Assembly: GCA_963765625.1 (NCBI GenBank)
Contig: CAVXXD010000005.1
Coordinates: forward strand, 322,008 to 386,007
Origin: an uncultured bacterium
GTDB taxonomy: Bacteria > Actinomycetota > Geothermincolia > Geothermincolales > Geothermincolaceae
DNA: 64,000 bases
Reading direction: 5' to 3'
Made by a program: the position numbers and the translations under genes
Shown: positions 1,788-40,596 of the stretch, piece by piece
Layout: each line of letters starts with the position of its first letter
Numbering within the stretch: position 1 is the stretch's first letter
The notes under the pieces: model-generated
The model's database searches: none
Seen by the model: the letters and a program-made list of their open reading frames with translations, nothing else
What the model was told of the DNA's origin: nothing

Positions 1788-1988
1788 TCTTACACCTCCT
1801 GCTCAACGGACCTGGGCATACCGGAAGCCGGGGAAGAGTGTAAACGTCGCTGCGAAGAGGGCCCAACAGAATCAGCATGTGGCTACTGATGATTGTTGTC
1901 TTGGGATGACCGCTAGTCAACCACCGGGGCAACCGATGAGCATAACGCGAGGTAGAATCGTTGAAACAAGTCGACAATCGACCCCATG

Positions 1989-2018
1989 TAAAAAGGGGCG
2001 GACCGAAGCCCGCCCCTT
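1989..2018 (-). terminator. Rho-independent terminator downstream of the acetate-transporter gene
   Basis: GC hairpin AGGGGCGG-accgaagc-CCGCCCCT followed by a T-tract on the minus strand, placed immediately after the stop at 2040. Confidence 0.5.
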
Positions 2019-2039
2019 GTAGATGCTGAGATTTCCGGT

Positions 2040-2687
2040 TTAGAGATCTTCCGGGGCCTTGTAGGCATCCTTCTCGCCCATGGGCCAGATGGGAGCGATG
2101 ACCTTGCCGTACATCTCGTTCCACAGCTCGGCCTGGGCCAGGTAGATGGCCGAAGCGCCACAGATGATGCCGATGACACCGGCGATCTTGAGGACGGTAC
2201 CCGACTTGCCGGGATAGGAGAACCAGGCGAAGTGGACGGCCAGCAGGCCGTAGAGGGTGGTCAGGGAGAGAAACACGAATTGCAGCACCCGGTTGACCCT
2301 CAGGGTGCCTACGAACATCAGCAGGGTGAACAGTCCCCACAGCGCCAGGTACCAGGCAAAGCCCTTGTTGGCCGGTTCGAGTACCAGAAGCGTCTTTTCA
2401 CCAATCTGCCATCCCATCAGGGCAGGCTTCATGATGATGATGAACACCAGGGTCAGCCAGAAGGACCCGTAGGCGATGAAGGCGGTGGTCCCGAAGGTGT
2501 TGCCCTTCTTGTATTCCATGATCCCCGCGATGATCTGGGCGATGCCGCCCAGGAAGATGCCCATGGCCAGGATGGGCGCGTCCTGCTTGAACAGACCCGC
2601 GTTGTGCAGGTTGAGCAGGATGGTGGTCATGCCGAAGCAGGTCAGGCCCAGTACTGCCGGATTAGCCAGCTTTACGTCATCTGCCAT
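2040..2687 (-). CDS. satP: GPR1/FUN34/YaaH family acetate uptake transporter
   Basis: NPAVLGLTCFGMTT signature (the NPAPLGL motif of the family) and six predicted TM helices. I moved the start to MADDVKLANP, which has a GGAGAG ribosome-binding site (RBS) upstream. The longer ORF start looks like an artefactual extension. Confidence 0.75.
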   Translation of the reverse strand: MADDVKLANPAVLGLTCFGMTTILLNLHNAGLFKQDAPILAMGIFLGGIAQIIAGIMEYKKGNTFGTTAFIAYGSFWLTLVFIIIMKPALMGWQIGEKTLLVLEPANKGFAWYLALWGLFTLLMFVGTLRVNRVLQFVFLSLTTLYGLLAVHFAWFSYPGKSGTVLKIAGVIGIICGASAIYLAQAELWNEMYGKVIAPIWPMGEKDAYKAPEDL

Positions 2688-2821
2688 TGCTTCTTCTACT
2701 CTCCTTTCCTTTCTCTCTGCGTTTCTACTACAACCGATCCAACAAAACTTACGCAAACGGCAAGATGATAGCATGGCGCCACACTGCTAGCAACATGAAT
2801 TTTTCCGGTCACGGAAAAGCT

Positions 2822-2846
2822 TAAAGGGCGGCCTTCAGGCCGCCCT
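2822..2846 (-). terminator. Terminator hairpin downstream of dfx
   Basis: GGGCGGCC-ttca-GGCCGCCC hairpin followed by a T-rich tract on the minus strand. Confidence 0.45.
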
Positions 2847-2879
2847 CGCGCCGTATCAGGTATCCGAGGAGCTAGCGGC

Positions 2880-3257
2880 TCAGCTGCTCTTCCAGAGGCC
2901 GTGCAGGTTGCAGTATTCGCGTGCGTAGGCCCCGTCCGGCGTGGCGCCGAAAAGGGCTTCCGGGGCGCCGTTGACCTCCAGGAAGATGCGGTAGCTCAGG
3001 TTGCCCTGGATGAGCTGCGCCCACTCGATGTGGTGATCCTCGGCCATGGGGTGCGGCACACTCCCGATCTTGACCGTGATGCCTTCGGCGGTCTTCTCGA
3101 TCACCGGCACGTGCTTCTCGACGGCGGCATCCACCGAGTCCTCCACCTGAAGGGCCATGGGCTGTCCGCAACAGACCAGTTCTCCCTTGCCGGCGGTTAG
3201 CACCTCCACTATGTTGCCGCAGACCTCGCACTTGTAGACCTGAAGTCTCTCCGTCAT
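2880..3257 (-). CDS. dfx: Desulfoferrodoxin (two-iron superoxide reductase)
   Basis: N-terminal desulforedoxin-type CEVCGNIVEV...CCG domain, followed by a neelaredoxin domain carrying the HPM...HHIEW iron ligands. Confidence 0.85.
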   Translation of the reverse strand: MTERLQVYKCEVCGNIVEVLTAGKGELVCCGQPMALQVEDSVDAAVEKHVPVIEKTAEGITVKIGSVPHPMAEDHHIEWAQLIQGNLSYRIFLEVNGAPEALFGATPDGAYAREYCNLHGLWKSS

Positions 3258-3370
3258 CTGTTGTAACCTCCTTTATCAGCAAGCCTTACGTTCCAAGAGA
3301 TTCTTATACCCTCGAAGCCCGGCAGCTAAACGGCTCCGGCTCGTCCCCCCTCCTCTTCATGCCCCAACCC

Positions 3371-3396
3371 AAAAGCGGGCCGGCAAGGCCCGCCCT
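3371..3396 (-). terminator. Rho-independent terminator
   Basis: GGGCGGGCC-ttgcc-GGCCCGC hairpin followed by TTTTGGGTT on the minus strand, downstream of the 3431..3748 ORF. Confidence 0.45.
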
Positions 3397-3430
3397 CATG
3401 CACGATCGGCCTTCGCGGCCAAGACGGCCG

Positions 3431-3748
3431 CTATTCCTTGTTGAACATCTCGAAGAGCATGTGAGGTGTGATAGCATCCTCCCGCGTTTCGCTGGCATAG
3501 TCGTCGATGTAGGGTACGGCCAGCTTATTCCAGGTCTCATGGTCCCAGGGGCTGTCGTTGTTGATGATGGCCACCGTGTATCCCTCGCCGTCGTTGGTCA
3601 TGGCCTGGATCTCCTGCGTCTTGACATTTTTCTCCAGTATCTCGGTGATGGCGTCCCGTAGCAGGGTAAGCGCCGCACTGTTCCCTACGATACTGGCCTT
3701 GTCATGAAAGAAGAACTGAGAAAAAATGTGCAGCAAGGGATAGTCCAC
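3431..3748 (-). CDS. Hypothetical protein
   Basis: 105-aa ORF with a terminator downstream and no recognisable motif. Confidence 0.35.
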   Translation of the reverse strand: MDYPLLHIFSQFFFHDKASIVGNSAALTLLRDAITEILEKNVKTQEIQAMTNDGEGYTVAIINNDSPWDHETWNKLAVPYIDDYASETREDAITPHMLFEMFNKE

Positions 3749-3940
3749 CCTTGTTCACCTCCTCGTCACGCTCCAAGCTCAACGCTTCACTTAGTTCGAT
3801 GACTATTGTAACACGTTGAAGAGAATAACGTGCTTGTAAACGAGCTGAAAAATGTCGGCTCCAGGGAAGCACAAACCAGGGCGGAAAGGAATGGGAATTT
3901 GCCTTGCGCCGTGAAACCCTGCTCCTGGAGCCTGACGATA

Positions 3941-4213
3941 TTAATACTGATAAGAGTCCCGCGACTCAGTACGCCTCGGCCTGGCCTCGCTCACATTGAT
4001 GCCGCGCCCGCCTACGTCCTTGCCGTTCAAAGCTTGAATGGCCGAACGGGCCGCCTCTTCGTCGCTCATCTCCACGAAACCGAATCCCTTGGAACGGTTG
4101 GTGCTGCGATCGATGATCACCTCAGCCGAATCCACCGAACCGAATTCGCTGAAGAGCGTACGAAGCTCTTCCGAATCCGTGGAATAACTCAGATTTCCCG
4201 CGTAAATCCTCAC
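3941..4213 (-). CDS. RNA-binding protein (RRM domain)
   Basis: RNP-2 motif IYAGNL and RNP-1 motif KGFGFVEM. 90 aa, the usual size for a bacterial RRM protein. Confidence 0.8.
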   Translation of the reverse strand: MRIYAGNLSYSTDSEELRTLFSEFGSVDSAEVIIDRSTNRSKGFGFVEMSDEEAARSAIQALNGKDVGGRGINVSEARPRRTESRDSYQY

Positions 4214-4421
4214 CCTATTTCACCCCCTCCTGTCCTCATACAAAAACCGAGGATACGGTCTCCTCGGTCCTCACAGCTAACTTACCTTGAAAAACCGGAC
4301 GTGCATATCATAGCAAAAACCATGCCCCGGTTCAACACAGATTTGATAACCCATAAAGCCGCTTTCCGACAGGCCGTTCCTTGCTATTGTTAAAAACCAT
4401 TCAGCCATTATAATTGTTTGT

Positions 4422-4497
4422 GGGCCGCTAGCTCAGTTGGTAGAGCACCGGACTTTTAATCCGTAGGTCGAGGGTTCGAGTCCCTCGCGGCTCACCA
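4422..4497 (+). tRNA. tRNA-Lys (anticodon TTT)
   Basis: 76-nt cloverleaf: GGGCCGC acceptor stem, GTTCGAGTCC T-loop, CTTTTAA anticodon loop and 3' CCA. Confidence 0.85.
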
Positions 4498-4502
4498 GAA
4501 TA

Positions 4503-4535
4503 AAAGGGTTGTGACCGGCAGGTCCAACCCTTCTT
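4503..4535. terminator. Hairpin between the tRNA-Lys 3' end and the acyltransferase stop; possible bidirectional terminator
   Basis: AAGGGTTG-tgaccggcaggtc-CAACCCTT stem between convergent genes. Confidence 0.4.
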
Positions 4536-4537
4536 GA

Positions 4538-5596
4538 TTAATCAGGGGGATCAGCCATAGGGGCGAGCGCCACTCGTTGCCTCTTGCCCAGGAGCAACGC
4601 GCCGAGGACCTTGGATCTTCGCAGGACGAGAAAAGAGAGGGCGAGCGAGAGCAACACCCCCGCAACAAAAGCAGAGATGATTCTTACCCAGCCGGTTCCG
4701 AAAGAAGCCCTCATGAATATTTGATGGGCTACGTAGATATCCATGGTCACCAGGCCGAACCAGCAGAGCATCTTGTATGCGGCACCGTGCCTCAGGAGCC
4801 TGATAAAACCATACGAAGCGAAGATCCCAAGCAGCGCGATCACATATCCCATCAGGAACTCATCGGGGCTTGAAACGATCTCCCCCACGCTGAGGAAGTC
4901 GCGGACAAGCCGGAGGTCTCTGCCGGCGAGTACGACAAGAACAAGGAAGAGTGCCGAAGCGCCCGCGAGCGCCGAATTGACGATGCATGGTCTTATCCGC
5001 CTGAGCGACTCCCTGTGTTTGGCGGCAAGATATCCGATGGCGAAAAACGAGAAGAAGGACCGCAGCAGCTTGAACCCCAGAATGTTCAGGGGTGAGACGT
5101 TGAAGACAATGACCAGCAAGGCGAGAGCTATCCCTCCAAGATATTTTCGCTTCGACTCGAGGAACGTCACCGGGATGAGGCACATGTAGCAGAGAAAGAG
5201 AAACCACAGGTACCACAACGCATACTCCGGGTGCAGTAGATCTGATTTGAGCGTGCCGATGTAGACGGTCTCATGGAATACGTAATAATCAAGCAGTTGA
5301 TTGACAGGTATCCAGGCCAGGAAGGGGACGATCAGCCTCAGGAACTTGTCCACTGGCCCGATGCTCTTTCCGTAAATGACAAATCCGCTCACCAAGGCGA
5401 AAAGCGGCATATGGAAGGCGTAGATAAAGAGATACGCGGGAGAGTTGCTGTATTCCGGGTATCCATAATAGCTGACGACATGACCCAGGACGACCAACAG
5501 GATAGCCATCCCCCTCAGGGCATCGATATCCAGGTTCCGCCCCGGCACGTCGCTGACCCGGGGGATCGGCAGCGACTTGGAGATGAGAGTTTTCAA
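4538..5596 (-). CDS. Acyltransferase family 3 membrane protein (O-acyltransferase)
   Basis: LRGMAILLVVLGH motif near the N-terminus and about 10 TM helices. Confidence 0.7.
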   Translation of the reverse strand: MKTLISKSLPIPRVSDVPGRNLDIDALRGMAILLVVLGHVVSYYGYPEYSNSPAYLFIYAFHMPLFALVSGFVIYGKSIGPVDKFLRLIVPFLAWIPVNQLLDYYVFHETVYIGTLKSDLLHPEYALWYLWFLFLCYMCLIPVTFLESKRKYLGGIALALLVIVFNVSPLNILGFKLLRSFFSFFAIGYLAAKHRESLRRIRPCIVNSALAGASALFLVLVVLAGRDLRLVRDFLSVGEIVSSPDEFLMGYVIALLGIFASYGFIRLLRHGAAYKMLCWFGLVTMDIYVAHQIFMRASFGTGWVRIISAFVAGVLLSLALSFLVLRRSKVLGALLLGKRQRVALAPMADPPD

Positions 5597-5811
5597 GCTG
5601 CATCGTCTTTCTCTTATCGAGTTTTCTTAATTATATCCGGTTAAGACAAGACCACGTCCTTTAAATGGAGTTATAATTTCAGGGACTGAGAAAAATCATG
5701 TTCCAATGCAACCACAAGTGGGGATAATAAATACAGGCTGCATTGATAACCAGGTTGTTCAACCGGGAAGACAAGGAGTGGTGGGGCACTCCGCAAAGGA
5801 GGTTGGGGCAG

Positions 5812-6761
5812 ATGGCTGGAAGCACTAAGGTCGGCAAAAACCGTAGCTCCCGCGTGTTGTGGGAGATCACCGCGCTGGTGGTGGTGGTGTACCTGATCGG
5901 GGGTCTTGCGGCTTTCCTCATTGCGCGGAACTCCTACAACGACCTGTCGCGGGAGAGCGTGGACAAACTCATCGATGAGAAAGCCCAGACCATCAGCTCC
6001 AGCTACGACTACCTGGCCACCGCGGAGATGGAGATCATGCTGGAGAAGTACGGGGTCGAGAACATCGACCGCGCCCAGGCTCTACGCCAAGCTGCTGGCG
6101 GGAAACAAGAACGATATCGACCCACTGCAGGAGTACCTCGACACGACCACCCAGGGCATGGTCGAGAAGGGGCTGCTGGGGCTGCAGAAGATCTTCATCG
6201 TCGTACCGCCCAGCTCCCTGACGCCGAATCCCATCACCATCGCTTCCAACGATCCCGACCTTGTTTTCTACGACTTCCCTGAAAGCATCGACCAGGCCAT
6301 TGAGGATGGTGAATCATGGATACTGCTGGAAGAGGGCATTCCAGCGCTGGGCCTGGAGGACGAGCAGCTGGTGACCCTGACCCAGGTCACCTCCCCGGTG
6401 GCTCCCGACGTCAAAGTCTCTTTCATCGGGATCACCCCCATGCACTCAGACATCGCCGAGATCAAAGCATTCTACGATGACGAGAAGAAGGACACCATGA
6501 TGCGAGTGGGGCGTGATCACCCTGATATCTATCGTGATCATCATGGTCCTGACCTTCTTCGTCCTGCGCCTGCTCATCCGCAAGCGCATCACCGAGCCCA
6601 TCGACATCCTCTCGGCCGAGGCCGGAGAAGTAATGGAGGGCAACCTGGACATCGACGTAGTGGTGCACGAGGGAGGCGAGTTCGAAGGGCTGGAGACCGC
6701 CTTTAAAAAGATGGTGGAGAGCATCCGCACCTACATCGCCAGGAGCCTCGGAGGAGAATAG
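5812..6761 (+). CDS. Membrane sensor-like protein (TM, extracytoplasmic domain, TM, HAMP), copy 1; reading frame broken twice
   Basis: Three consecutive ORF pieces (frames 1, 2, 0) line up with the paralogue at 6783..7732. The ATG at 5812 follows an AAAGGAGG RBS. The protein ends with a HAMP-like segment (RITEPIDILSAEAGEVMEGNLDIDV...) and has no output domain. Confidence 0.55.
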
Positions 6762-6782
6762 ACACAAAGGAGGTCTGAACCA

Positions 6783-7732
6783 ATGGGTGGGAACGGTAAA
6801 CCAGGCAAGAACCGAAGCTCCCGCGTGCTGTGGGAGATCACCACGCTGGTGGTGGTGGTGTACCTCATCGGGGGGCTGGCAGCTTTTCTTATAGCGCAGA
6901 ACTCCTACAACAACCTGTCCGAGGAAAGCGTCAATAAACTGATCGAGGAGAAGGCCAACACCATCTCCTCCAGCTACAACTACCTGGTCAAGGCGCAGAC
7001 GGACATCCTCTTCAAGGAATACGACACTGCCAGCGTCGACCTGCCCACGTTCTACGCAAGGCTGGTGGCGGGCGACAAGAACGACCTCGACCCCCTGCAG
7101 GTCTACATCGACACCAAGATGGAAGCGATGGTGGAAGAAGGCCTGCTGGACCTGCAATACCTCTTCATGATCATTCCCCCCAACCCGCTCTCCAAGAACC
7201 CCATCACCCTCGCGTCCAGCGACCCGGAACTGGTCTTCATGGACATGCCCCCGGAAATATCCGATGCCATCGAGGAAGAGAAGAGCTGGGTCATCCTGGA
7301 GGACGGCATCCCGGCGCTCGGCCTGGAAGGCGAGCAACTGGTGACCTTCACCAAGATCACGTCGCCCTTCGAATCCAACGTCATTATCAGCTTCGTGGGC
7401 ATCACCGACATGAGCTGGGACATCGCCGAGATCAGGCAGTTCTACGACGACGAGAAGAAGGACGCCATGGTCGAGTGGGGCGTGATCGACCCTGCATCTC
7501 CATCGTGATCATCATGATCATTACCTTCTTCGTCCTCCGCTGGCTCATCCGCAAGCGCATCACCGAGCCCATCGACATCCTCTCGGCCGAGGCCGGGGAA
7601 GTGATGGAGGGCAACCTGGACATCGACGTAGTGGTGCACGAGGGAGGCGAGTTCGAAGGGCTGGAGACCGCCTTCAAGAAGATGGTGGAGAGCATCCGCA
7701 CCTACATCGCCAGGAGCCTGGGTGACGGTTAA
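6783..7732 (+). CDS. Membrane sensor-like protein (TM, extracytoplasmic domain, TM, HAMP), copy 2; one frame disruption just before the second TM helix
   Basis: AAAGGAGG RBS. ORFs 6783..7508 and 7475..7732 are about 60% identical to copy 1. The gene is followed by a strong terminator. Confidence 0.55.
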
Positions 7733-17759: not shown

Positions 17760-18551
17760 GTGAAAACCATGCCGGCAAATGCTTTCATGCAACCGCTGAC
17801 GGACGCCTGGCAGGGCTTCGTCGAATACCTCCCCTTCATCGTCGAGGGACTGGTGGTGATGCTCGCCTTCTTCTTGATAGCGAAGGTGGTGCGCTTCCTG
17901 GCGGAGAGAATTATTTACAGAATGAAGAAGTCTGAGCACGCGGCGCGCCTGCTTTCGCGCCTGGTCTTCTACGTCATCATCTGCGGCGGCGCCGTGGCCG
18001 CCCTGGCGGTCATGGGGGTAAACCCCGCCCGCCTGGCCACTTCGCTGGGGCTGCTGGGCATGGGCCTGGGCATCGCCCTGCGCGAGGTCATCGAGAACTT
18101 CATGGCCGGGGTAATACTGCTGGTGCAGAGGCCCTTCACCGTGGGCGACCAGATCACCTTCGGCGACTACGAGGGCATCGTGGAGGATGTGCGGGTGCGC
18201 GACACGGTTATCCGCCTCTACGACGGGCGGCTGGTCTACGCCCCCAACGCCCAGATATTCCGGGGCCCGGTGGTCAACAACACTTCCTCCCGCCGGCGCC
18301 GGGTCGACTTCGAGGTGCTCATCAAGCACGAGGAAGACGTGCCGACGGCGCTGGACGCCGCGGCGGAGACCCTCATGGAGGTCGACGGCATCCTGACTGA
18401 GCCCGCTCCCCTGGTGGTGGCGCGCGGCCTGGAGGAGAGCGGCGTGGTCCTGCGGGCCTACCTGTGGGTGGACCCGGTCAAGACCAGCATCCTCGAGACG
18501 AAATCCTCGGCCATCGCCGGCGTCAAGGTGGCCCTGGCCGACATGTTCTAA
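17760..18551 (+). CDS. Mechanosensitive ion channel family protein (MscS-like)
   Basis: TM helices followed by the MscS beta-domain signature FTVGDQITFGDYEGIVEDVRVRDTVIR. Confidence 0.8.
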   Translation: MKTMPANAFMQPLTDAWQGFVEYLPFIVEGLVVMLAFFLIAKVVRFLAERIIYRMKKSEHAARLLSRLVFYVIICGGAVAALAVMGVNPARLATSLGLLGMGLGIALREVIENFMAGVILLVQRPFTVGDQITFGDYEGIVEDVRVRDTVIRLYDGRLVYAPNAQIFRGPVVNNTSSRRRRVDFEVLIKHEEDVPTALDAAAETLMEVDGILTEPAPLVVARGLEESGVVLRAYLWVDPVKTSILETKSSAIAGVKVALADMF

Positions 18552-18638
18552 GGGGTCAGGTCTATCGTTCATTATTTTCTGCCAGATATTGGTAATACCA
18601 GATAATGGTTGAAAATAATAAACGATGGACCTGACCCC
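18552..18638. repeat. Palindromic repeat element, family A copy 1 (GGGGTCAGGTCTATCGTT...AACGATGGACCTGACCCC)
   Basis: 87 bp with 28-bp terminal inverted repeats around an AT-rich core containing TGGTAATACCA. Near-identical to the element at 39094..39180. Confidence 0.7.
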
Positions 18639-18677
18639 CTGTATAATCGACGTGACGACTTTAAGGGGGTTTCGACA

Positions 18678-19355
18678 TTGGACAGCGCCACCGTAAAGAA
18701 GATACTCACCGGCGAAGGGGCGTCCCTCTGCGGCATCGCGCCGGTCGACCGCTTCGTGGACGCCCCCAGCGGTTTTCACCCCCTGGACATCTACGAGTAT
18801 TGCCGGAGTGTGGTGGTGTTCGCGAAACACCTTCCGGCCGGCACCCTCTCCGCCCGCAGCCGTGTTCCCTACTCCCTCGCCAATGATGTGGTGATCGAGG
18901 AGGTGGACGCCATGGGTTTCCGGGCCTGCCTGGCGCTGGAAGAGCTCGGGGCCACTTGCGTCCCCGTACCCACGGACAGCCCCGTCGAGCACTGGGAGGA
19001 GGAACGCCGGCACGGCCAGGGAATCCTTTCCCTGCGCCACGCCGGCATGCTGGCCGGGCTGGGGGTGCTGGGGCGCAACACGCTCCTCATCAACCAGCGC
19101 TACGGCAACATGATCCAGATCGGTGCGATACTGGTCGACGTCGAACTGGAAGGCGACCCCCTGGCCTCCTACGAGACCTGCGCTCCCGACTGCGGCCTCT
19201 GCCTGGAGTCATGCCCGGCCGGAGCGCTGGACGGCACCACCGTGGACCAGTCCCTCTGCCGCCCCGTTTCCATCGTCACCAACGCGCGCGGGCAACTGGT
19301 CAAGGGGTGCTACGTCTGCCGTCGTGTCTGCCCCTGTGCGCTGGGCCTCGCTTAG
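18678..19355 (+). CDS. 4Fe-4S dicluster protein (epoxyqueuosine reductase / reductive-dehalogenase-like C-terminus)
   Basis: CxxCxxCxxxCP ferredoxin motifs (CGLCLESCP, CYVCRRVCPC). Start placed at the TTG after an AAGGGGG RBS, because the longer ORF begins inside the repeat element. Confidence 0.5.
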   Translation: MDSATVKKILTGEGASLCGIAPVDRFVDAPSGFHPLDIYEYCRSVVVFAKHLPAGTLSARSRVPYSLANDVVIEEVDAMGFRACLALEELGATCVPVPTDSPVEHWEEERRHGQGILSLRHAGMLAGLGVLGRNTLLINQRYGNMIQIGAILVDVELEGDPLASYETCAPDCGLCLESCPAGALDGTTVDQSLCRPVSIVTNARGQLVKGCYVCRRVCPCALGLA

Positions 19356-21836: not shown

Positions 21837-24800
21837 TCAGGGCGCGTACCCGATGGAACAGGTGCCCCAGGTCCGGCCCGCGTCGTACATGGCACGCTCG
21901 CAGACCACCCCGCCCCCACTGGAGGTGACCACGGTGGAGACATCGTAATCGCTGACGTAGTCGTTCAAGTAGACGGTGACGCGGGAGCCGGCCTTGACGA
22001 CGTAACCTTTCATGCCTTCGACCGGCCCGGACGAAGTAACGAAGGAAACGTCCACCTTGACGTCGACAGGGTTGGGATTCTGTATCAGCAGGTAGGTATC
22101 GATACCGCCGGCCGTGCAGCCCTCGGCCAGGTACCAGGTGGAAGAAGGCACGGTGGCGCCGATGGAGCAGGTGCCCCAGGTGCGGTCCCGGTTATACATG
22201 GAACGCTCGCATACCACCCATCTTCCCATAGTAGTCGTCACCACGGCGGAGACATCGTAATCGGTGACATAGTCGTTGAGCCGGAAGGAGCGGCGCCCTT
22301 TCTCCGGAACGATCACGTCCTGAAGGGCTTCAGGTTTCAATTCACCGGATGAGGTCTGAAGCGTGATGTTGATTTCGGATGAAAGATTTCCCGGGTTCTG
22401 CACCAGCAACCAGGTCTCGAAGCCCTCGCCGGTGCAACCCTCGGGCAGGTACCAGGTTGCGGCGGGAGCAGTGGCGCCTACGGATGCATGCGCCCACTGC
22501 CGTCCGTTGCCGTACATGGCCCGCTCGCAGACCACGTCTCCGCCCGAGGAAGTCACGACTGTAGATAGATTCCAGTCCACCCTTGATTCCGATAGGTTAT
22601 AGGACCTTCGAGAATGAGCCGGAACAACCAGGCCGGACTGGCCCGGTATGGGCTCTACAGGATAGGACTCGAGCCTCATCGTGCCAGGCAGCATGAACGT
22701 AATGTCCACGGTCACGTCAGTATCGCCCGGGTTCTGCACGAGAAGCCAGGTCTCGAAACCCTCGCCGGTGCAACCCTCAGCCAGGTACCACGTGGACGAC
22801 GGGGTGCGGGTGCCGACGGTCTCGGTGGCCCAGGTCCGGCCGTCGCCGTACATGGCGCGCTCCACTACTATCTCCCCTCCGGTAGCCGAGACCACGGCTG
22901 AGATGTCGTAGGAAGTGAAGAAGGACCCGGCGTTGAAGGAGACGCGTGTATTGCCGGCCAGCTCGTATCCCTGCAGCGCGGCCGGTGCGAAGAGCCCGTC
23001 GGCGGTCGGGAAGGAGATGTCCAGGGTCACGGGGTCCTGGTTGGAGTTGGCCACCAGTATCCAGGTCTCGAAGCCCTCGCCGGTGCAGCCCTCGGCCAGG
23101 TACCAGGTGTCGGTGTCGGCGGCGAAGGTGGCCACTACCTCGTGGTCTTCCCTTACGTTCGAGATGACGTAAGGACTGGAGACGGCGACCGCCGCCCCGT
23201 TATCGGTAATGCTGGCGATGTGGCAGTGGGCGGCGGGCGTGATGGCGATGGAAGCGTTGCTGCCCCACTCAACCGATTGAGTCGTCGGGGTGACGGTGCC
23301 ATTCCCATCGGCCGATGCATTTACCGTGAAGTTATCGATGGCGAAACCGGCGGTGAGATCCCAGGCAGCCTCGGCGGTGAAAGACCAGGCCGCCTCGGTG
23401 GAGACCTCGGTCCCCGCCTCGGTCCAGCCGGCGAAGTGCCACCCTTCCGCCGGAGTGGCCACCAGCAGCACGGTGTCCCCGTAATAGTACGCGCCGGCAC
23501 CTTTAGCCGTGCCGTTTCCCGAGACCGTTACAGAGACGGGGCACGGGTCCGGCTCGAAGGAAGCGACCACGTCGTGGGCTTCTTTTACATTGGAGATGAC
23601 GTAGGGATCGGCCGGGGTCACCGACACCCCGTTGTCGGTGAGGAAGGCGAGGTGATAGCCGGTGTCGGGGACTATGTCGACGGAGGCCGCGTTGCCGTAG
23701 GCCACGCTCTGGGTAGAGGGATCGGCGGCGCCGTGTCCGCTGAAAGAAGCCGAAGCGGTCACCTGGTAGAAGTCGGCGGCGAAGGTCACCTCCACGTTGT
23801 GCGCGCCCGTGACGTTGTTTATGACGTAAGTGCCGCCGGTCACCGGCTGGGCCACCCCATTGTCGCTGATGGTCTCGGTATGGTAACCCGCGTCGGGAGT
23901 CAAGGTGATGGTGGCGGTGGAGCCGTAGTCAACGCTCTGGTTGGCTGGGCTGACGTTTCCGTGCCCACCGGAGACGTAGGCGTTGACGCCGAAAGTGTCG
24001 ATGGCGTAGACCACCTGGACCTGGTGCCAGGAGGTGACGCCGGAGATGACGTAGGGGTCGGATGCCGCCTGAGGCACTCCGTTGTCGACGATGTAGGCGG
24101 GGTGATAACCCGTATCGGGGGCCAGGTCGATGGAGGCGCCGGTACCGTAAGCCACGCTCTGGTTGGCGGGGCTGACGCTGCCGTGACCGCCGGGAACCGA
24201 GGCATCCACGGCGACGTCGAAGCTCACCACGATGTCATGGGTTGCCGCCACATCTGAGACAACGTAAGGGTTTGCAACGGCTTGCGTGGTCCCGTTGTCC
24301 GTAATCCCCGCTATCGAGCAGTGCTCGCCGGCGGTGATCTCGATGGTGGCGTCGTCTCCCTGCTCGACCCACTGGCTGGCCGGGGAGACGCTCCCGCCTC
24401 CCCCGGCGACCGAGGCATTGACCACGTACCCGATATCGGCCGAATAGCGGATGCCGTCCGCCCCCTGCCATATCACGCATGGATTGCCGGCCGCGCTCAC
24501 TTCAACCTCGGGACGGACGTTCTCGGTATCGGCGGTCAAGGCATGGGGAGGGCCCCAGCCGTTTCCGCCATCGGCGGAGTAGAACACCTGAGGTACCGAG
24601 GAGACCGAGCCTTCCCAAGCCAGGTGGCGGAAGCCGGATGGATCTATTGAAAAAGAAGGATGGCCGTTGTCCGAGCCCGTGGATACCTGCTCCGGCTCGG
24701 ACCAGCCGGCCGGGGAAGCGGTACGGCAGTAGATCTGCCTGCCTGACCCCGTGTTGCCGGACCAGGCGACCTGCGCGTAACCGGAGGCGTCCACCGCGAT

Positions 24801-26852
24801 CCGCGGGTTCGAATTATCCGTACCGCTTGACAGCTGAAGCTCAGCCGACCAGGCGGAGCCTTCTTTTCGAGTGAAATAGGCTTGCATCGAGGAATCGGCG
24901 GCGATGGCCTGCCATACCACGTTGGGGCGGCCATATACGTCGACGGCGATGTCCGGGTTGTACTTGTTGGATCCCCAGGAAAGAGCGGCCGGCGAGCTCC
25001 AGCCGGGGCCGGAGTCGGTGGAATAGTAGACCTGGTCCATCATGCCGTCGTTACCCTGCCAGACCACGTGGGACCGGCCGTCCGAGCTGATGGCTATGCG
25101 GGGCAAGAGGCCGATGGTGCCGCCGGATACGGTCTCGGGCGCGGACCAGCCGGTGCCGGTATCGGAAGAGTAGACCGCCTCCGTTCCGCTCCGCCACACC
25201 GCGTGAGGATGCCCTGAAGCATCCACGGCTATGGAGGGTTCGTGGTTGTCGGCGCCGCTGGAGATAAGCCGCGGGTTCGACCAGCCGGACCCGCTGTCCG
25301 ACGAGTAGAATATCCTCGAGATATCGGCATCCTGCTCGTTGTCATGATAGAAGGCCTCCCAGACCGCGTGCCGGTTTCCCCCCGCATCGACGGCTAACGC
25401 CGGCTTCTTCTCCTCGAAGCAGTCCGACAAAGCCTGCTTGGCGGACCAGCTGCCGCCCGCCTTGGATGCATAGAAAACGTGGTAGTCCCCTCTCGCTGTA
25501 TCGTTCTCGTACCAGACCAGATGGGGACTGCCGCTCGAGTCCATGGCGATCTCGGGATTGCTGTCGAATATCCAGCCGTAAGCGAAGTCGGAGCAAGTGG
25601 AAACGAGCTCCCGCGTCCATCCCGATCCGAGATTATCCGCGTAATAAATATTAAGGGTGTCGAAATCGGCCAGGCCCCCACCAAGCCCCTCCATCCAAGT
25701 CACATGAGGGTGCCCAGCCGCATCCAGGGCTATCCGGGCATTTTCGCCCGTGCTGGCGGCGGCATCGAGCTTGACCGGCGCCGACCAGCCCGAACCGAGA
25801 TCAGCGGCATAAAAGACTCCCTCGCTAGCGCACCAGACGGCATGAGGATGACCGTTATTGTCCACGGCTATCCTGGGCTGACTGACGCTGAAAGAAGTGC
25901 CCAGGGTTGTTGGAGCAGCCCAACCTGAGCCGGAATCGGTGGAATACAGGATGTTTTTCCCTTCTTCGTCCACCCAGACGGCATGAGGGTGATCTTCCTC
26001 ATCTATCGCCAGATCGGGGGGGTCCCACAGGTAATTGCTGGTACAGGAGCCTTCCAGTTCGGAGTGGGTAAATTCGCCGGCATGCGAGTAATCAACCAGG
26101 TGAACCAGGCACTTAGCCGCCGGTTCATATGCCTTGTGCGAGTTGATGATGATATGGGGATGGTCCCCCGAATCGATGGCTATCTGGGGACAGAGGTTGT
26201 TCTCGTTGGCCCTGATGATGCGCTCTCCTATCCAGCCGTTTCCGAGATCGGCATTGTAAATAGCCACCGAATATGCCGAAAACCAGCTATCGCCCCATTG
26301 ATAGTGCCATACGACGTATGGATGCCCCTGCGAATCGACCGCCAGGTCAGGCCGCGGCGGATTGTAAGCGCCCTCATTATGGTCATCGGAAATCTGGACC
26401 GGGGCGGACCAGCCGGTGCCGAGGTCGGCGGTATAAAAAATGTTTGCGTACCCGCCTGCTTGCTGTTGCCAGACCGCATGGGGGTGGCCGTTGACATCGA
26501 TAACCAGTTGAGGATCGAGATCGTGCCTGGACTCCGTCGCCGTCGACAACCGCCGGGGATAGGACCAGCCAGCGCCGTTGTTGGTCATGTAATAGGCCTG
26601 CAGTATGCCCTGGCTGTCCTCCCCCTGCCACACCGCATGGATATTGCCGCTGGCGTCTATCTCTATCTGTGGATAACGGTTGTTGCCCGAATCTGGGGTG
26701 ATCTCCCGCGGGGATGTCCACGCCTCGGAAGAGGGCGATACGGCGGGAAAGGCTATTACGAGTAGCGCCGCTGTCAGCATCACAGCCAGAAAAACTGCCG
26801 GCCGGTAAGGTCTTGTCCAGTTTTTCCTGCGATTAAATGCCGTGAAGATCAT
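21837..26852 (-). CDS. Giant secreted/cell-surface protein (1671 aa): signal peptide, many BNR/Asp-box repeats, InlB B-repeat-like domains, then six C-terminal repeats of about 95 aa
   Basis: Start at MIFTAF after an AGGAGG RBS. Repeated SxDxGxGW Asp-boxes. GGG(S/T)VSP InlB B-repeat-like modules. Six repeats with the WYLAEGCTGEGFETWLLVQNP motif. Confidence 0.7.
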   Translation of the reverse strand: MIFTAFNRRKNWTRPYRPAVFLAVMLTAALLVIAFPAVSPSSEAWTSPREITPDSGNNRYPQIEIDASGNIHAVWQGEDSQGILQAYYMTNNGAGWSYPRRLSTATESRHDLDPQLVIDVNGHPHAVWQQQAGGYANIFYTADLGTGWSAPVQISDDHNEGAYNPPRPDLAVDSQGHPYVVWHYQWGDSWFSAYSVAIYNADLGNGWIGERIIRANENNLCPQIAIDSGDHPHIIINSHKAYEPAAKCLVHLVDYSHAGEFTHSELEGSCTSNYLWDPPDLAIDEEDHPHAVWVDEEGKNILYSTDSGSGWAAPTTLGTSFSVSQPRIAVDNNGHPHAVWCASEGVFYAADLGSGWSAPVKLDAAASTGENARIALDAAGHPHVTWMEGLGGGLADFDTLNIYYADNLGSGWTRELVSTCSDFAYGWIFDSNPEIAMDSSGSPHLVWYENDTARGDYHVFYASKAGGSWSAKQALSDCFEEKKPALAVDAGGNRHAVWEAFYHDNEQDADISRIFYSSDSGSGWSNPRLISSGADNHEPSIAVDASGHPHAVWRSGTEAVYSSDTGTGWSAPETVSGGTIGLLPRIAISSDGRSHVVWQGNDGMMDQVYYSTDSGPGWSSPAALSWGSNKYNPDIAVDVYGRPNVVWQAIAADSSMQAYFTRKEGSAWSAELQLSSGTDNSNPRIAVDASGYAQVAWSGNTGSGRQIYCRTASPAGWSEPEQVSTGSDNGHPSFSIDPSGFRHLAWEGSVSSVPQVFYSADGGNGWGPPHALTADTENVRPEVEVSAAGNPCVIWQGADGIRYSADIGYVVNASVAGGGGSVSPASQWVEQGDDATIEITAGEHCSIAGITDNGTTQAVANPYVVSDVAATHDIVVSFDVAVDASVPGGHGSVSPANQSVAYGTGASIDLAPDTGYHPAYIVDNGVPQAASDPYVISGVTSWHQVQVVYAIDTFGVNAYVSGGHGNVSPANQSVDYGSTATITLTPDAGYHTETISDNGVAQPVTGGTYVINNVTGAHNVEVTFAADFYQVTASASFSGHGAADPSTQSVAYGNAASVDIVPDTGYHLAFLTDNGVSVTPADPYVISNVKEAHDVVASFEPDPCPVSVTVSGNGTAKGAGAYYYGDTVLLVATPAEGWHFAGWTEAGTEVSTEAAWSFTAEAAWDLTAGFAIDNFTVNASADGNGTVTPTTQSVEWGSNASIAITPAAHCHIASITDNGAAVAVSSPYVISNVREDHEVVATFAADTDTWYLAEGCTGEGFETWILVANSNQDPVTLDISFPTADGLFAPAALQGYELAGNTRVSFNAGSFFTSYDISAVVSATGGEIVVERAMYGDGRTWATETVGTRTPSSTWYLAEGCTGEGFETWLLVQNPGDTDVTVDITFMLPGTMRLESYPVEPIPGQSGLVVPAHSRRSYNLSESRVDWNLSTVVTSSGGDVVCERAMYGNGRQWAHASVGATAPAATWYLPEGCTGEGFETWLLVQNPGNLSSEINITLQTSSGELKPEALQDVIVPEKGRRSFRLNDYVTDYDVSAVVTTTMGRWVVCERSMYNRDRTWGTCSIGATVPSSTWYLAEGCTAGGIDTYLLIQNPNPVDVKVDVSFVTSSGPVEGMKGYVVKAGSRVTVYLNDYVSDYDVSTVVTSSGGGVVCERAMYDAGRTWGTCSIGYAP

Positions 26853-36384: not shown

Positions 36385-37569
36385 TCAGTAGCCGGGAACG
36401 CCCAGGGCGCGCAGGTTTTCCAGGGCAGTGCGGTCGTTGGGATAGAGCTCCAGGGCTTCCTGAAAATCGGCTGCCGCCGCCGCGGTATCCCCCATGGCCA
36501 GGTAGAGGAAGGCGCGTTCGTCGTAATACCTGAAGTATATGGGCGTGCCCAGGCTCATCGCTGTTCCGATGTCGAGCAGGGAAGCCTGGTAATCCCCCAT
36601 CTCCCTCAGGGCCATGCCGCGCCTCATATAGGCCCGGGGCGTATCCGGAAGCTTCTCGATGCCCTGGTCCAGGCAGGACAATCCTTCATCCGTCCGGCCC
36701 AGCATCACCAGCGCGTAGCCCATCGCGGGATAAATGTCCGCCAGGCCTTCTTGTATCGCCAGCGCCCTCTCGCAATCCAGCAGCGCTTGCTGGTAATCGC
36801 CCAGGTCACAGAAGACGATGGCCCTCCTCTCGAGGGCGTCGGTCGACTCCGGGTCCTGTTCCATAACCCGGTCGAAGTCGCGCAGGGCTGCTTCATATTC
36901 CTTGAGCGCGGTGTATACGGTGCCCCGTGTTGTGAGACAGGGACCGTGGTCCGGTTTGAGTAAGAGGGCCTGGTTTATGTCGGCCAACGACTCGTCAATC
37001 CTATTGAGCATGTAATTGGCTGCGCTCCGGTGGGCAAAGTACTCCCACTTGCTCTGATCGAACGAGATGGCCCTGGAGAAGTCCGTTAAGGCGCTTCGAT
37101 AAAACTCCAATGCCATATTGCATGCACCGCGGCCGGCAAAAAGATCTGCGTTTTCGCTGTCCAGGCTGATTGCCTGGTCGAATTTGACCAGGGCCCTGTC
37201 GTATTCACCCTTCTTGTAAAGTGAAGCCCCCTGATCTGCCAGGGCAGCAGCTTCTTTCTCACCGGACTTGTCTTTCAGGTGGGGGTATGTAATCAAAATT
37301 AAAAAGGAGGCGGCAGCCAGTAAGCCGGCAACCAGCACCGTGATGAGTATAGTCACCTTGGCCTTTGACGCTTTAGCCGGCGGCGGAGGCAAAAGAGGGG
37401 CCTGGTAATACTGGTACTGGGGATACTGGTACTGGGGATACTGGTACTGGGGATACTGGTACTGGGGATACTGGTACTGGGGATACTGGTACTGAGCCGG
37501 AGGGTTCCCGCAGGACGGGCAGGCCGGCGCGCCCTCCGGCATCTCCTTCCCGCACTTTATGCAGTACAT
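36385..37569 (-). CDS. Zinc-ribbon / TPR-repeat membrane protein with a (YQYPQ)n low-complexity linker
   Basis: N-terminal CIKCG...CPSCG zinc ribbon, a YQYPQ-repeat linker, one TM helix, then at least seven TPR motifs. Confidence 0.7.
   Translation of the reverse strand: MYCIKCGKEMPEGAPACPSCGNPPAQYQYPQYQYPQYQYPQYQYPQYQYPQYQYYQAPLLPPPPAKASKAKVTILITVLVAGLLAAASFLILITYPHLKDKSGEKEAAALADQGASLYKKGEYDRALVKFDQAISLDSENADLFAGRGACNMALEFYRSALTDFSRAISFDQSKWEYFAHRSAANYMLNRIDESLADINQALLLKPDHGPCLTTRGTVYTALKEYEAALRDFDRVMEQDPESTDALERRAIVFCDLGDYQQALLDCERALAIQEGLADIYPAMGYALVMLGRTDEGLSCLDQGIEKLPDTPRAYMRRGMALREMGDYQASLLDIGTAMSLGTPIYFRYYDERAFLYLAMGDTAAAAADFQEALELYPNDRTALENLRALGVPGY
37402..37497. repeat. Perfect 15-bp tandem repeat, about six units, inside the zinc-ribbon/TPR gene
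   Basis: The unit atactggtactgggg occurs five times in perfect tandem, flanked by degenerate units. Each unit is in frame and encodes five amino acids. Confidence 0.8.
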
Positions 37570-37582
37570 TTGTCGGCTTTCT

Positions 37583-39001
37583 CTACCCGGCGGGGTGGTT
37601 CGACTTCATCAGCTTTACCAGGGCCTCGGCTGAGGCCACGGCCTGCTCGGTGCCGATGCCGCGGGCTCCCGCGTCCACTCCCACCAGGTAGAGGGCGCTT
37701 ACCGGGGTCTCCTGGGAAGGCTTCTTCTTCCCCACCTGCCCCGGCGACTGCGAGAGAGCGATGGCACTGGTGTTATCCAGCCCCGAGGCGGCCTGTATCA
37801 TGCTTTTCGTCACCACCTCGGTCGAGGTCACGTGCTTCTCCATCTCCGGGTAAATATCGTACAGCTTCTTTTTAACCATCTCGGCGATGGCTTGCTCGAT
37901 CTCGGGAGACGCGCCCTGGGGGCACGCCGTGGCGGCGATGATCAGCTGGCGCCCCGCGGGTACGATGTCGCCATCCCAGAGGTCGATCACCGGCATGAAC
38001 AGCCAGGAGTCCGAGGGCAGGCTGCCGTCCTCGAGATGGTCGAACATCTTCGCCGAAGAGAGGTTCGGGATATAAACCATAAAGGGGTCCTTGAGCACTT
38101 TGCTGTCGAGAAAGAAGCGGACGATCACCGCCGTCTCGGAGTAGTCCAGGCCGGCTGCGAACCTGGCGTAATCGGCCCCCACGGCCTCCTCCCCGGCCAG
38201 CCTTACGGTTACGGGTATGCCGGCGTTGGATATCACCACGTCGGCGGCGATGTCACCGGACGGTGTGCGGACGCCGGTGGCCCGGCCGTTCTCGACCAGT
38301 ATCTTCTGCACCGGCGTGTTCAACCGCACGGTGCCGCCGAACTTCTCCAGGCCGCGGCGGAAGGCCGCCGCGATGGAGCCGGTGGAACCCTTGATGTAAC
38401 CGAAGTCGGCCGCGTTGAACATCTCGCGGAAGCACCAGACGAACTCCCCCGCCGAGGCGCGATGGTAAGGGATGCCGAAGTACATGCTGGAGAGGATGTT
38501 CATGAAACGGTGGAGCTGTTCGTCCCGGGTGTAACCGCTCAGGAAGTCCTTCAAAGTGACGTCGTCCTTCGACTCGCAGAAAGCGTCGTCCGCGCGCAAC
38601 ATGTCCCGGAAGAGGCGGAACCCGCCCCAGAAGTTGACCGGTTTGATGCCCAGGTTCATGGCCATCCGCGCGCGCGTGATGAGAGGGCTGATGTCCAGCC
38701 GCTGGGTATAACGGTGATACTTGCCCCCTAGCCCGTCCACCACCAGCGAAGCCGGGTCATGGGAGATAAAGGTCAGCTCCTCACCCAACTCCCTGGCCAC
38801 CCTGGTATGCGGGCCTTTGCCCCCCATGGGGAAGGCGTGCGTGAAGTTGTCTATGACGTACCCGTCCCGCTCGGTCGAGCTGCACCTGCCCCCGATGAAA
38901 GAGTTGCGCTCAAGCACCTCTACCTCGTAGCCGGCTTTGGCGAGAAGGGCGCCGCAAGCCAGCCCGCCCACGCCTGCACCGATGACCACTACCTTGGACA
39001 T
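37583..39001 (-). CDS. Phytoene-desaturase-family (CrtI-like) FAD-dependent oxidoreductase
   Basis: N-terminal VVIGAGVGGLACGALLAKAGYEVEVLE...GGR motif. 472 aa. Confidence 0.7.
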   Translation of the reverse strand: MSKVVVIGAGVGGLACGALLAKAGYEVEVLERNSFIGGRCSSTERDGYVIDNFTHAFPMGGKGPHTRVARELGEELTFISHDPASLVVDGLGGKYHRYTQRLDISPLITRARMAMNLGIKPVNFWGGFRLFRDMLRADDAFCESKDDVTLKDFLSGYTRDEQLHRFMNILSSMYFGIPYHRASAGEFVWCFREMFNAADFGYIKGSTGSIAAAFRRGLEKFGGTVRLNTPVQKILVENGRATGVRTPSGDIAADVVISNAGIPVTVRLAGEEAVGADYARFAAGLDYSETAVIVRFFLDSKVLKDPFMVYIPNLSSAKMFDHLEDGSLPSDSWLFMPVIDLWDGDIVPAGRQLIIAATACPQGASPEIEQAIAEMVKKKLYDIYPEMEKHVTSTEVVTKSMIQAASGLDNTSAIALSQSPGQVGKKKPSQETPVSALYLVGVDAGARGIGTEQAVASAEALVKLMKSNHPAG

Positions 39002-39093
39002 GTCCTACCTCCCTGCTAGATGGGGCGCCGCACACCGGGCGCCATTCCCTTGAGGACATTCTAAGTGAGGAAGCGGGCACAAGCCAACCGCAT

Positions 39094-39180
39094 GGGGTCA
39101 GGTCTATCGTTTACTATTTCCATCCAGAATTTACCATTACCAGAATATGGTAAGAAATAATAAACGATAGACCTGACCCC
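39094..39180. repeat. Palindromic repeat element, family A copy 2
   Basis: 87 bp, GGGGTCAGGTCTATCGTT...AACGATAGACCTGACCCC. Lies between the stop of 39182..40474 and the start of the CrtI-like gene. Confidence 0.7.
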
Positions 39181-39181
39181 A

Positions 39182-40474
39182 TTAACGGGCGATGAGCGGG
39201 GGGATGCGGGCGGAGGTGCGGTGGAGGCGGGCCAGGAGCAGGAGCCAGGCGGATTCCCAGGGGGGCAGAGGGGCCATCCTGATGGGGTTGACCTTGCTCA
39301 GGGCAGCCAGGGATGCGATGATGTCGCGGAGGTTGTTACAGCCATCGACCCGGCGCACGTTGCGCTTGCCCAGCCGGCCGGCCAGTAAGGTGTAGGCTTC
39401 CTGTGAAGCGCAATCGCCCACGGTCAAGGCCTTGCCGCTTATCGACGCCAGGGTCCCGGGAGACCAGCCCTTTCCCATGAGAATGCTGAAGTCTCCTCCC
39501 CCCGCGAAGTCGACGTAGAGCATCTGCAGCACCGCCAGGGTATTCAGCCAGCAACCCTCGGGACAGCATCTCTCTTCTCCCTTTAGCAGCTTCACATAAG
39601 GTGGGAAAACGTCGAGCATCTCCCAGGTGTAGTTACGGAGGTAGGGCTGGAGGTCGCCAATTACTTCAATCTTCTCCAGGTCGATCTCACCCCAGCCGTC
39701 CTCCGCTGCCAGGGTCAGGTGCTCTATCTCGCGAGGGTCGACGCCCATGACGTGCGATCCCACCGCGTCCGCGGCGACGGTGTCGTCGCTCCCGATAAAG
39801 ACACCCAGCTTCTCCACGCACCGGTCCTGCAAGCCTTCCGGGGCATGATGGCCGTGGTTGAAGGCGTAAAGGCCCTCGATCAGGGTGAAGTCGGGCCTTA
39901 CCACGCTCATGATGTCCGCCAGCTTGCGGTGTAGCTTCCAGTTGTGGTCGCGTATGCGGTCGGCCTGCGTCACCAGGCCGAACTGGTTCTTTACCCCCAG
40001 GGTCACCTGGGCCATGAGGTGCATCTTCAGCTTGGGCATGTTCAGGTAAAAGACGTCGCCGCGGCCGTCAATGAGCCTGTCCCTGACCCAGGCGGAGACG
40101 CGCACGATGTCTCCCAGGCGGGGCAGGACCACCGGCAACTGGGGGCCTTCGTCCAGGTAGACGGGGATGGCCCCTTCCTGTTTAGCTGCCTTCTCCAGGC
40201 CGGAGACCCGGAAGACCAGGCGGGTGAAGTTTCCCTGGGTGCAGTTCTCGATGACGTATACCCGCCGGGCGCCGCCTTTTTTCAGGACGCGGATGACGGC
40301 GCGGAGGGCGTCGGGGTGGGTAAAGGTGTTGGGTTTGAAGTCGACGGCGTTGACCTTGATGTGAACCTCTTCGCGGCCCGCGAGCAATGTCGCGACTCCG
40401 CCGAACGGTGCGAAGACCTCCTCCACCGCCCGGTCAAGGCCGGCATCCGCCGCAGCCACCGCCACCTTGCTCAT
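39182..40474 (-). CDS. Conserved hypothetical protein (possibly DUF362-like)
   Basis: 430-aa ORF containing CCPEGC. The family assignment is tentative. Confidence 0.4.
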   Translation of the reverse strand: MSKVAVAAADAGLDRAVEEVFAPFGGVATLLAGREEVHIKVNAVDFKPNTFTHPDALRAVIRVLKKGGARRVYVIENCTQGNFTRLVFRVSGLEKAAKQEGAIPVYLDEGPQLPVVLPRLGDIVRVSAWVRDRLIDGRGDVFYLNMPKLKMHLMAQVTLGVKNQFGLVTQADRIRDHNWKLHRKLADIMSVVRPDFTLIEGLYAFNHGHHAPEGLQDRCVEKLGVFIGSDDTVAADAVGSHVMGVDPREIEHLTLAAEDGWGEIDLEKIEVIGDLQPYLRNYTWEMLDVFPPYVKLLKGEERCCPEGCWLNTLAVLQMLYVDFAGGGDFSILMGKGWSPGTLASISGKALTVGDCASQEAYTLLAGRLGKRNVRRVDGCNNLRDIIASLAALSKVNPIRMAPLPPWESAWLLLLARLHRTSARIPPLIAR

Positions 40475-40487
40475 AACGCCTCCGTAG

Positions 40488-40587
40488 GAAATTTGGGGTC
40501 AGACCCCTTCTCCACTTTCCCTGACGTTGATCATATATCAAAGCCTAAAAAGGGAGAAAGTGGAGAAGGGGTCTGACCCCAAATTTC
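40488..40587. repeat. Palindromic repeat element, family B copy 1 (GGAAATTTGGGGTCAGACCCCTTCTCCACTTTCCC ... reverse complement)
   Basis: About 35-bp inverted-repeat arms around a 30-bp AT-rich loop. Shares the GGGGTCAG terminus with family A. Confidence 0.7.
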
Positions 40588-40596
40588 CCAACCCCG

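Follow-up and report, generated by a model that had tools for sequence, protein, structure and literature searches.

The question raised by this locus is what kind of element an 87-bp palindrome is when it occurs twice in the window (the whole 64,000-nucleotide stretch of Actinomycetota DNA analysed here), has no coding capacity, and lies each time against the end of a gene. The two copies, which we call family A, have the length and the coordinates given to them in a first-pass annotation of the same DNA:

18552-18638, no strand: family A copy 1, an 87-bp palindrome with arms at 18552-18584 and 18606-18638 and an AT-rich core
39094-39180, no strand: family A copy 2, palindromic over 87 bp, with arms that pair as far as 39092-39120 / 39154-39182

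Both copies start with GGGGTCAGGTCTATCGTT and end with its reverse complement, and this 18-mer, at up to three mismatches, is found four times in the window, once in each family A arm, against 0.03 occurrences expected from dinucleotide-preserving shuffles of the window. Aligned without gaps, the copies agree at 70 of 87 positions (80%), slightly below the approximately 85% first reported; each outer arm matches at 25/28 positions and the core at 20/31. The inverted arms, described earlier as about 28 bp long, extend over 33 nt with 88% complementarity in copy 1 and over 29 nt with 97% in copy 2. They enclose, as the same annotation held, an AT-rich core (element positions 19-69; 27% G+C, compared with ~40% for the whole element and 62% for the window) with small inner palindromes that are also present in the predicted folds. 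RNA folding of both strands, a check that had been proposed at the outset, predicts one long and stable hairpin per copy (-46 to -53 kcal/mol, z ~ -11); as single-stranded DNA the elements fold at -28 to -30 kcal/mol, and at both copies the sense strand folds better by ~4 kcal/mol. The copies lie 20.5 kb apart and each is a palindrome in itself, which agrees with the initial judgement that they are not CRISPR repeats. A search of the window with an nhmmer profile of 291 arms, drawn from the superfamily described below, found no additional degenerate copies.

A second pair of palindromes, family B, is present in the same window:

40485-40592, no strand: family B copy 1, with arms GGAAATTT-GGGGTCAGACCCC-TTCTCCACTTTC
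49339-49441, no strand: family B copy 2, with perfect 37-nt arms, the arm including the TAG stop of the upstream gene

Family B arms read GGAAAKTT-GGGGTCAGACCCC-TTCTCCACTT in both copies, are 94-100% complementary to their partners, and each contain a 13-nt palindrome of their own; these elements also adjoin stop codons. All four A arms and all four B arms have a common core, GGGGTCAG, and eight of the nine occurrences of this core in the window are arms of the two A and two B elements. Di Nocera, De Gregorio and Rocco described genes for RAYT-like Y1 transposases that carry long terminal inverted repeats and not GTAG REPs, named the units "TIRtrons" and the transposases "TIRYTs", and found that some TIRYT-flanking repeats share the motif GGGGWSAS and also occur as families of dispersed dimers (Di Nocera et al., 2013, BMC Genomics 14:522; PMC3733652). 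The GGGGTCAG core is an exact instance of this motif, and the 64-kb window contains two A and two B dispersed dimers. We consider family A to be, with good probability, a non-autonomous REPIN-like element in which two inverted TIRYT-type recognition arms of ~28 nt, tagged with GGGGTCAGGTC, surround a short and variable AT-rich core, and which would be moved in trans by a Y1 transposase.

The genes around the two family A copies are the following:

17769-18551, plus strand: MscS-type mechanosensitive channel gene (Pfam MS_channel domains; P0121, a recorded protein of 260 aa, is identical)
18678-19355, plus strand: gene for a Cys-rich (Fe-S-like) protein of 225 aa, with a TTG start at 18678 and an AAGGGGG ribosome-binding site at 18663-18669
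37583-39001, minus strand: amine-oxidase gene (Pfam)
39058-39087, minus strand: promoter-like site for the amine-oxidase gene, TTGGCT-18-TAGAAT (consensus match only)
39182-40474, minus strand: DUF362 gene (Pfam), whose stop codon is 1 nt from copy 2

Copy 1 is directly 3' of the MscS TAA stop (18549-18551), and the placement at gene boundaries that was first remarked upon holds to within 0-1 nt of the MscS and DUF362 stop codons. The suspicion that the downstream open reading frame had been wrongly started inside copy 1 also proved sound: the mechanical start at 18609 is spurious, and the N-termini of three orthologues (M-D-S-A-x-V-K-K-I-L) align from the TTG at 18678. For annotation of the window, this means that the Fe-S-like gene starts at 18678 and that the two A and two B palindromes are not genes but repeat DNA, selfish or domesticated. 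On the other side, the promoter-like site lies 6 nt beyond copy 2, so that copy 2 exactly fills the space between the DUF362 stop and the putative promoter. A search for intrinsic terminators at both A copies revealed no terminator-like site, and neither copy is followed by a canonical U-tract; judged from position and predicted stability, a role as terminator or mRNA stabiliser is possible.

Homologues of the proteins encoded next to the elements place the organism in Actinomycetota, near groups of the Geothermincolia type. Evidence that such elements come and go was obtained from the site after the MscS stop, which was compared in four relatives with the same gene order:

L187 905-970 (MscS 85% identity): empty site, TAG-CCGATTCCAA-TATAATCGA, where the window reads TAA-(element)-CTG-TATAATCGA
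L188 4786-4885 (L188/L189, MscS 75% identity): a different 97-bp palindrome, AGGGCCGTGTCTTGTTTTTTGCATTAT..., with AGGGCCGTGTC termini
L190 4790-4820 (MscS 81% identity): a 26-bp mini-palindrome of fused termini, TAATAGGGTCAGATCTGACCCTATTA

Comparison of the empty L187 site with the filled site of the window reveals no duplication. The 97-bp palindrome of L188 and L189 has an inner arm like that of other superfamily members, and the L190 mini-palindrome is equivalent to a GGGGTCAGATCT-type element minus the interior between its two palindromic AGATCT hexamers. A site that is empty, occupied by a different member, or collapsed, depending on the relative, supports mobility and turnover. Copy 2 is found at the same site in L001 (99.5% nucleotide identity overall), where it measures 89 nt with an indel in the loop, and in L184 (94.7% nucleotide identity overall), where a single one of its 87 nt differs. 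Family B copy 2 keeps its position in L184 and L185, the family B site at the convergent gene pair being at the same position in both with different inner arms, and family B copy 1 has lost its arm complementarity in L184.

These comparisons bear on whether the elements are still mobile, since the same REPIN/TIR class could be represented here by inert relics, kept by drift in a lineage with no active transposase left. With only 80% identity, the two A copies are not products of recent transposition and may be relics, and the broken arms of family B copy 1 in L184 and the collapsed mini-palindrome of L190 are what decay would produce. Furthermore, a search for TIRYT and RAYT genes in the 64-kb window and ~90 kb of related contigs, together ~150 kb of the lineage, found none. 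However, these ~150 kb are a small part of the genome, copy 2 is nearly unchanged between strains that differ far more overall, and the family B arms in the window are still matched almost throughout. We regard complete inertness as possible but doubtful.

To place family A in a wider setting, the pattern GGGGTCAGGTC-N50-80-GACCTGACCCC (22 fixed bases, 31 spacings) was scanned against 596 Gb of contigs representing one genome per species. At least 120 loci were found, where ~1 match is expected by chance (our estimate, assuming uniform composition), and about 12 phyla are represented among the matches listed. These matches include Acidobacteriota, Methylomirabilota/Rokubacteria and several classes of Pseudomonadota, the latter with many Duganella, Massilia and Janthinobacterium isolates, as well as Desulfobacterota, Elusimicrobiota, Nitrospirota, Atribacterota, Actinomycetota, Gemmatimonadota, Planctomycetota, Omnitrophota, Bacillota and one Uhrbacteria genome. 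Conservation is not limited to the bases of the pattern (T12 in 83% of 281 arms; A16, T17, T18, C23 and A24 are enriched), and the arms have the consensus GGGGTCAGGTCT-tgMATT-nnGACAttt, from which the family A arms depart after position 12 (TATCGTT vs TTGMATT). Superfamily interiors vary in sequence by genome and keep their palindromy, and among eleven copies from Oxalobacteraceae 19 of 41 stem pairs have undergone compensatory double changes. Pairing continues outside GGGG by one base in 63% of elements, by two in 41% and by three in 25%, so that the conserved block is frequently subterminal, and the outer paired bases are clade-specific (CTCC...GGAG in Oxalobacteraceae, for example). Nested, concentric copies were seen in L106, L105 and L083; like the prophage copies and the arm-supplied stop codons described below, they speak for mobility and turnover.

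Several further scans delimit where such elements occur. The single matching contig in a viral scan, L122 (IMGVR_UViG_3300029286_003067), carries a Mu-like prophage fragment at 1871-7279 (gpT major head, Gp36, Gp37, tail tube) and five short 55-nt copies in intergenic gaps, with loops in both orientations. A scan of JGI metagenomes with the family A 18-mer gave no further true palindromic copies among 61 matches, most of which are a conserved coding start (ATGGACCTGACCCCACGCGAAAAA) or chance. The reverse complement of that gene start is the 18-mer GGGGTCAGGTCCATCGTT, present in many soil and freshwater contigs (L125-L183); these matches are unrelated to the repeat and are a trap for pattern searches. 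A tandem 75-nt unit beginning GGGGTCAGGCCTTGGCATTGACAGG, which may or may not be related to the family, occupies L186 16270-16600, where it is broken by a run of N and has no inverted partner. A full-text literature search with the core strings and their variants returned nothing but primers and eukaryotic or viral sequences with no relation to the repeat.

A classical MITE, a DDE-type insertion sequence that has lost its interior and is moved by cut-and-paste acting on its terminal inverted repeats, would also be small, intergenic, and free of open reading frames, with long terminal inverted repeats. As described in the 2013 paper on TIRtrons, DDE-type bacterial MITEs (Correia/NEMIS, ERIC, RUP, Nezha) are 70-300 bp, non-coding elements with terminal inverted repeats that are co-transcribed as hairpins (PMC3733652). 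The window elements resemble them in size, inverted repeats and lack of coding capacity, but MITEs duplicate their target site on insertion and descend from DDE insertion sequences, and neither holds for the window elements. The duplications that the first-pass annotation suggested looking for were absent from all 126 superfamily elements examined at lengths of 3-10 bp, whether the flanks were taken directly next to GGGG or beyond the extended palindrome, or the longest common flank substring was compared with shuffled pairings. The often subterminal position of the conserved block, with clade-specific paired bases outside it, also speaks against a MITE. All-against-all clustering of the 2,909 open reading frames within 3 kb of 124 elements revealed no recurrent neighbour beyond the ubiquitous ABC, SDR and GGDEF families, and no transposase of any DDE type recurred there; the elements are therefore dispersed in trans and not bound to one type of locus. 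Additionally, two representative superfamily elements (not the window copies) had no BLAST match among 72,556 plasmids, and the only gene found between arms of this kind encodes a Y1 transposase. Descent from a DDE element is very improbable.

The strength of the predicted structure might instead suggest a structured non-coding RNA gene, or the processing signal of a known RNA family. The Rfam search recommended for these elements found no family at the gathering threshold, and a permissive run likewise yielded only sub-threshold matches to generic plant and animal miRNA-precursor hairpins, far below gathering. The element is symmetric on both strands, and its loop and inner stem are conserved neither between the copies nor between genomes. 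Such an RNA is very improbable.

More can be said for a host cis-regulatory hairpin (a bidirectional or U-tract-less terminator, or a barrier to 3'-exonucleases) that is under selection in transcripts, its repeat nature being secondary. Superfamily elements lie close to stop codons: where a side has a converging open reading frame of at least 150 aa, the stop of that frame is -1 to +9 nt away in ~43% of cases, many elements occupy the entire gap between convergent genes, and seven open reading frames enter the arm by 15 nt and end at a TGA that the arm supplies (GGG GTC AGG TCT TGA). The very stable folds, the compensatory changes in Oxalobacteraceae and the better folding of the sense strand at both window copies are also consistent with selection on a transcript. 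However, among 44 elements that have a gene end on a single side, the sense strand folded better in 17 and the antisense strand in 21 (p = 0.70), which argues that the symmetry is a property of the DNA and not strand-specific evidence for RNA. A terminator would have no need of an 11-26 nt sequence kept across phyla, the window copies have no U-tract, the orthologous L187 site is empty, and family B copy 1 is decaying in L184. Placement next to stop codons is, moreover, what selection against insertions into promoters and coding sequence leaves behind when insertion is random, and the distribution seen here matches that reported for REP elements (PMC3733652). A primary function in host transcripts is accordingly unlikely.

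Direct evidence for the link to transposases comes from genes that lie between arms of the same type. All open reading frames of every fetched locus were compared with E. coli RayT, whose sequence was confirmed in Additional file 5 of Di Nocera et al. (PMC3733652), and two matched: L058:358-1176(-) and L178:10053-10955(-), the latter from a contig that had entered the set through the metagenome scan with the family A 18-mer. Both contain PF01797 Y1_Tnp (E 6.5e-15 for L058 and 1.6e-11 for L178) and exceed the 80-bit cutoff of NF047646, the REP-associated tyrosine transposase model (93.3 and 84.2 bits, respectively). At least 8,000 candidate homologues of the L178 protein were found at E <= 1e-20, several of them named RayT by their sources. 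Altogether, inverted GGGGTCAGGTCTTG... arms lie on both sides of a Y1 transposase gene in four genomes, two of them (L191 and L192) being the isolate genomes fetched for homologues of the L178 protein:

L058: arm GGGGTCAGGTCTTGCGTTTTGCC at 310, with the end of its complement at 1208; at 2874-2966, 1.7 kb from the transposase gene, the same 27-nt arms form a palindrome that encloses no gene
L178: a perfect 23-nt pair of arms at 10049 and 11016
L191 (Marinobacter bohaiensis): arms at 2906 and 3840-3850 around a transposase homologue
L192 (Gilvimarinus sp. DA14): arms at 2970 and 3870-3880 around a transposase homologue

Compared with the long TIRYTs in the alignment of Di Nocera et al. (pfs 148A, aba 2776, sml 4509, hch 1378), the bracketed proteins reach E 1e-28 to 1e-40; their matches to classical RAYTs are far weaker, at E 1e-6 to 1e-16. 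Because arms with the GGGGTCAG core of family A also bracket RAYT-type transposase genes in other bacteria, family A is most probably an ordinary member of a known and very widespread class of miniature mobile DNA. In the original description, TIRYTs were judged "less productive" than RAYTs (Di Nocera et al., 2013; PMC3733652).

By analogy with the IS200/IS605-RAYT enzyme family, in which hairpins of single-stranded DNA are recognised and cleaved by HUH/tyrosine chemistry, we propose that the single-stranded element would fold into a hairpin, and that a TIRYT encoded elsewhere in the genome would recognise the arm, cut, and rejoin without leaving a target-site duplication. Copies would survive where they are harmless, in the short space that separates a stop codon from the gene or promoter after it. 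An inserted element would be co-transcribed with the upstream gene and add a very stable 3' hairpin, which may incidentally end transcription or protect the mRNA. Under this mechanism, the arm core would be conserved across phyla because one transposase clade is widely distributed together with its recognition sequence. RAYT and TIRYT enzymes are not known from experiment to move REP-like DNA, nor any TIRYT to move these repeats.

How the elements relate to described systems can now be stated more closely. The first-pass annotation had offered a REP/MITE-like or structured-RNA-encoding family; the REP-like part is retained on the GGGGWSAS arms and the link to Y1 transposases, while a DDE MITE is set aside on the missing duplications and a structured RNA on the lack of an Rfam match and of strand bias. 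With TIRtrons the elements have in common the arm motif and the dispersed dimers; arms of this type surround long Y1 transposases, most similar to TIRYTs, in four other genomes, and the ~150 kb searched in the lineage of the window yielded no such gene. The repeats described for TIRtrons were moderately abundant in a limited number of genomes, whereas the GGGGTCAGGTC subclass occurs here in at least 120 genomes of ~12 phyla, and the family A arms differ from the common TTGMATT consensus of the inner arm (PMC3733652). The resemblance to REPINs includes two inverted units around a short spacer that form a long hairpin, and a non-autonomous, intergenic element with no target-site duplication that is associated with a Y1 HUH transposase whose gene lies between the same repeats (Bertels and Rainey, 2011, PMC3116915; PMC3337134). 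Family A arm ends have neither the GTAG nor the CGTC tag of REPINs, however, and family A thus does not consist of classical GTAG REPs. Its arms, unlike those of family B, are also not strong palindromes themselves, and the enzyme associated with these arms is of the longer TIRYT type. Classical REP sequences are lineage-specific, whereas the superfamily arm core is conserved across phyla. E. coli REP/BIME elements are similarly extragenic palindromes downstream of genes and between convergent genes, but REPs are 20-40 bp units with GTAG, and their sequence is unrelated. The roles proposed for REPs include mRNA stabilisation, termination and gyrase binding (PMC3733652).

Three other candidates were considered and rejected; Xer/dif sites, CIRCE-type operators and gyrase sites were also considered and set aside. 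Integron attC sites are imperfect palindromes of 57-141 bp that follow stop codons, have conserved ends and a variable middle, and are recognised as folded single strands; the RYYYAAC / GTTRRRY core sites are absent here, as is a cassette array, and the genes on either side have housekeeping functions. Tn3-family repeats start with GGGG and were dropped for the 5-bp duplications that they make. The 9-mer GGUCAGGUC is shared with helix 8 of SRP RNA, but the loops and the partner strand do not match.

A feature seen only at some superfamily ends may give direct access to how the elements move. Of 292 ends, 27 carry two to four tandem copies of a unit made up of the closing 6-7 nt of the arm, (T)GACCCC, and 4-13 nt of flank, where far less than one such end would be expected by chance. 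The repeat of the Marinobacter transposase gene itself has this stutter, GACCTGACCCC GCGCATGT GACCCC GCGCATGT GACCCC GCGCATGA..., and the window copies have none. Examples are found at:

L122 7175-7300
L109 790-970
L191 3840-3910
L105 2400-2590

The stutter could result from replication slippage at the foot of the hairpin, or could be a footprint of repeated cleavage and rejoining at GACC^TGACCCC; if it marks the cleavage site, it provides a concrete prediction for RAYT/TIRYT biochemistry. We suggest, tentatively and as a proposal that may well prove wrong, that the GGGGTCAGGTC elements are a single REPIN-like lineage that has travelled with one long-TIRYT clade through at least a dozen phyla with an 11-26 nt core nearly unchanged, the stutter then being a cut-and-rejoin footprint. 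If both the single lineage and the footprint are real, the chemistry by which RAYT-family enzymes transpose could be tested directly. Only the wide distribution of the GGGGTCAGGTC subclass and the stutters at element ends exceed what we found described, and the rest belongs to a known class. The analysis nevertheless ties a metagenome-assembled genome from Actinomycetota to repeats that the 2013 description knew from a limited number of genomes, adds verified pairs of transposase and repeat, and reveals the GGGGTCAGGTC subclass to be far more widespread than that description suggested.

The window also contains other features, distinct from families A and B. A tRNA gene at 4422-4494 is its sole match at an Rfam gathering score. 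A 15-nt unit (CTGGGGATACTGGTA) is repeated seven times in tandem at 37387-37521, near the 5' end of the minus-strand open reading frame 36385-37569. A long run of diverged internal repeats with periods of ~310-450 nt (families D1, D4, D5, D7, D9-D11 and D16) extends over 21850-26435 and probably encodes a large protein of repeated domains. Finally, two adjoining segments of ~970 nt at 5794-7722 (families D2, D6 and D8) are 73-94% identical, which suggests a tandem gene duplication.
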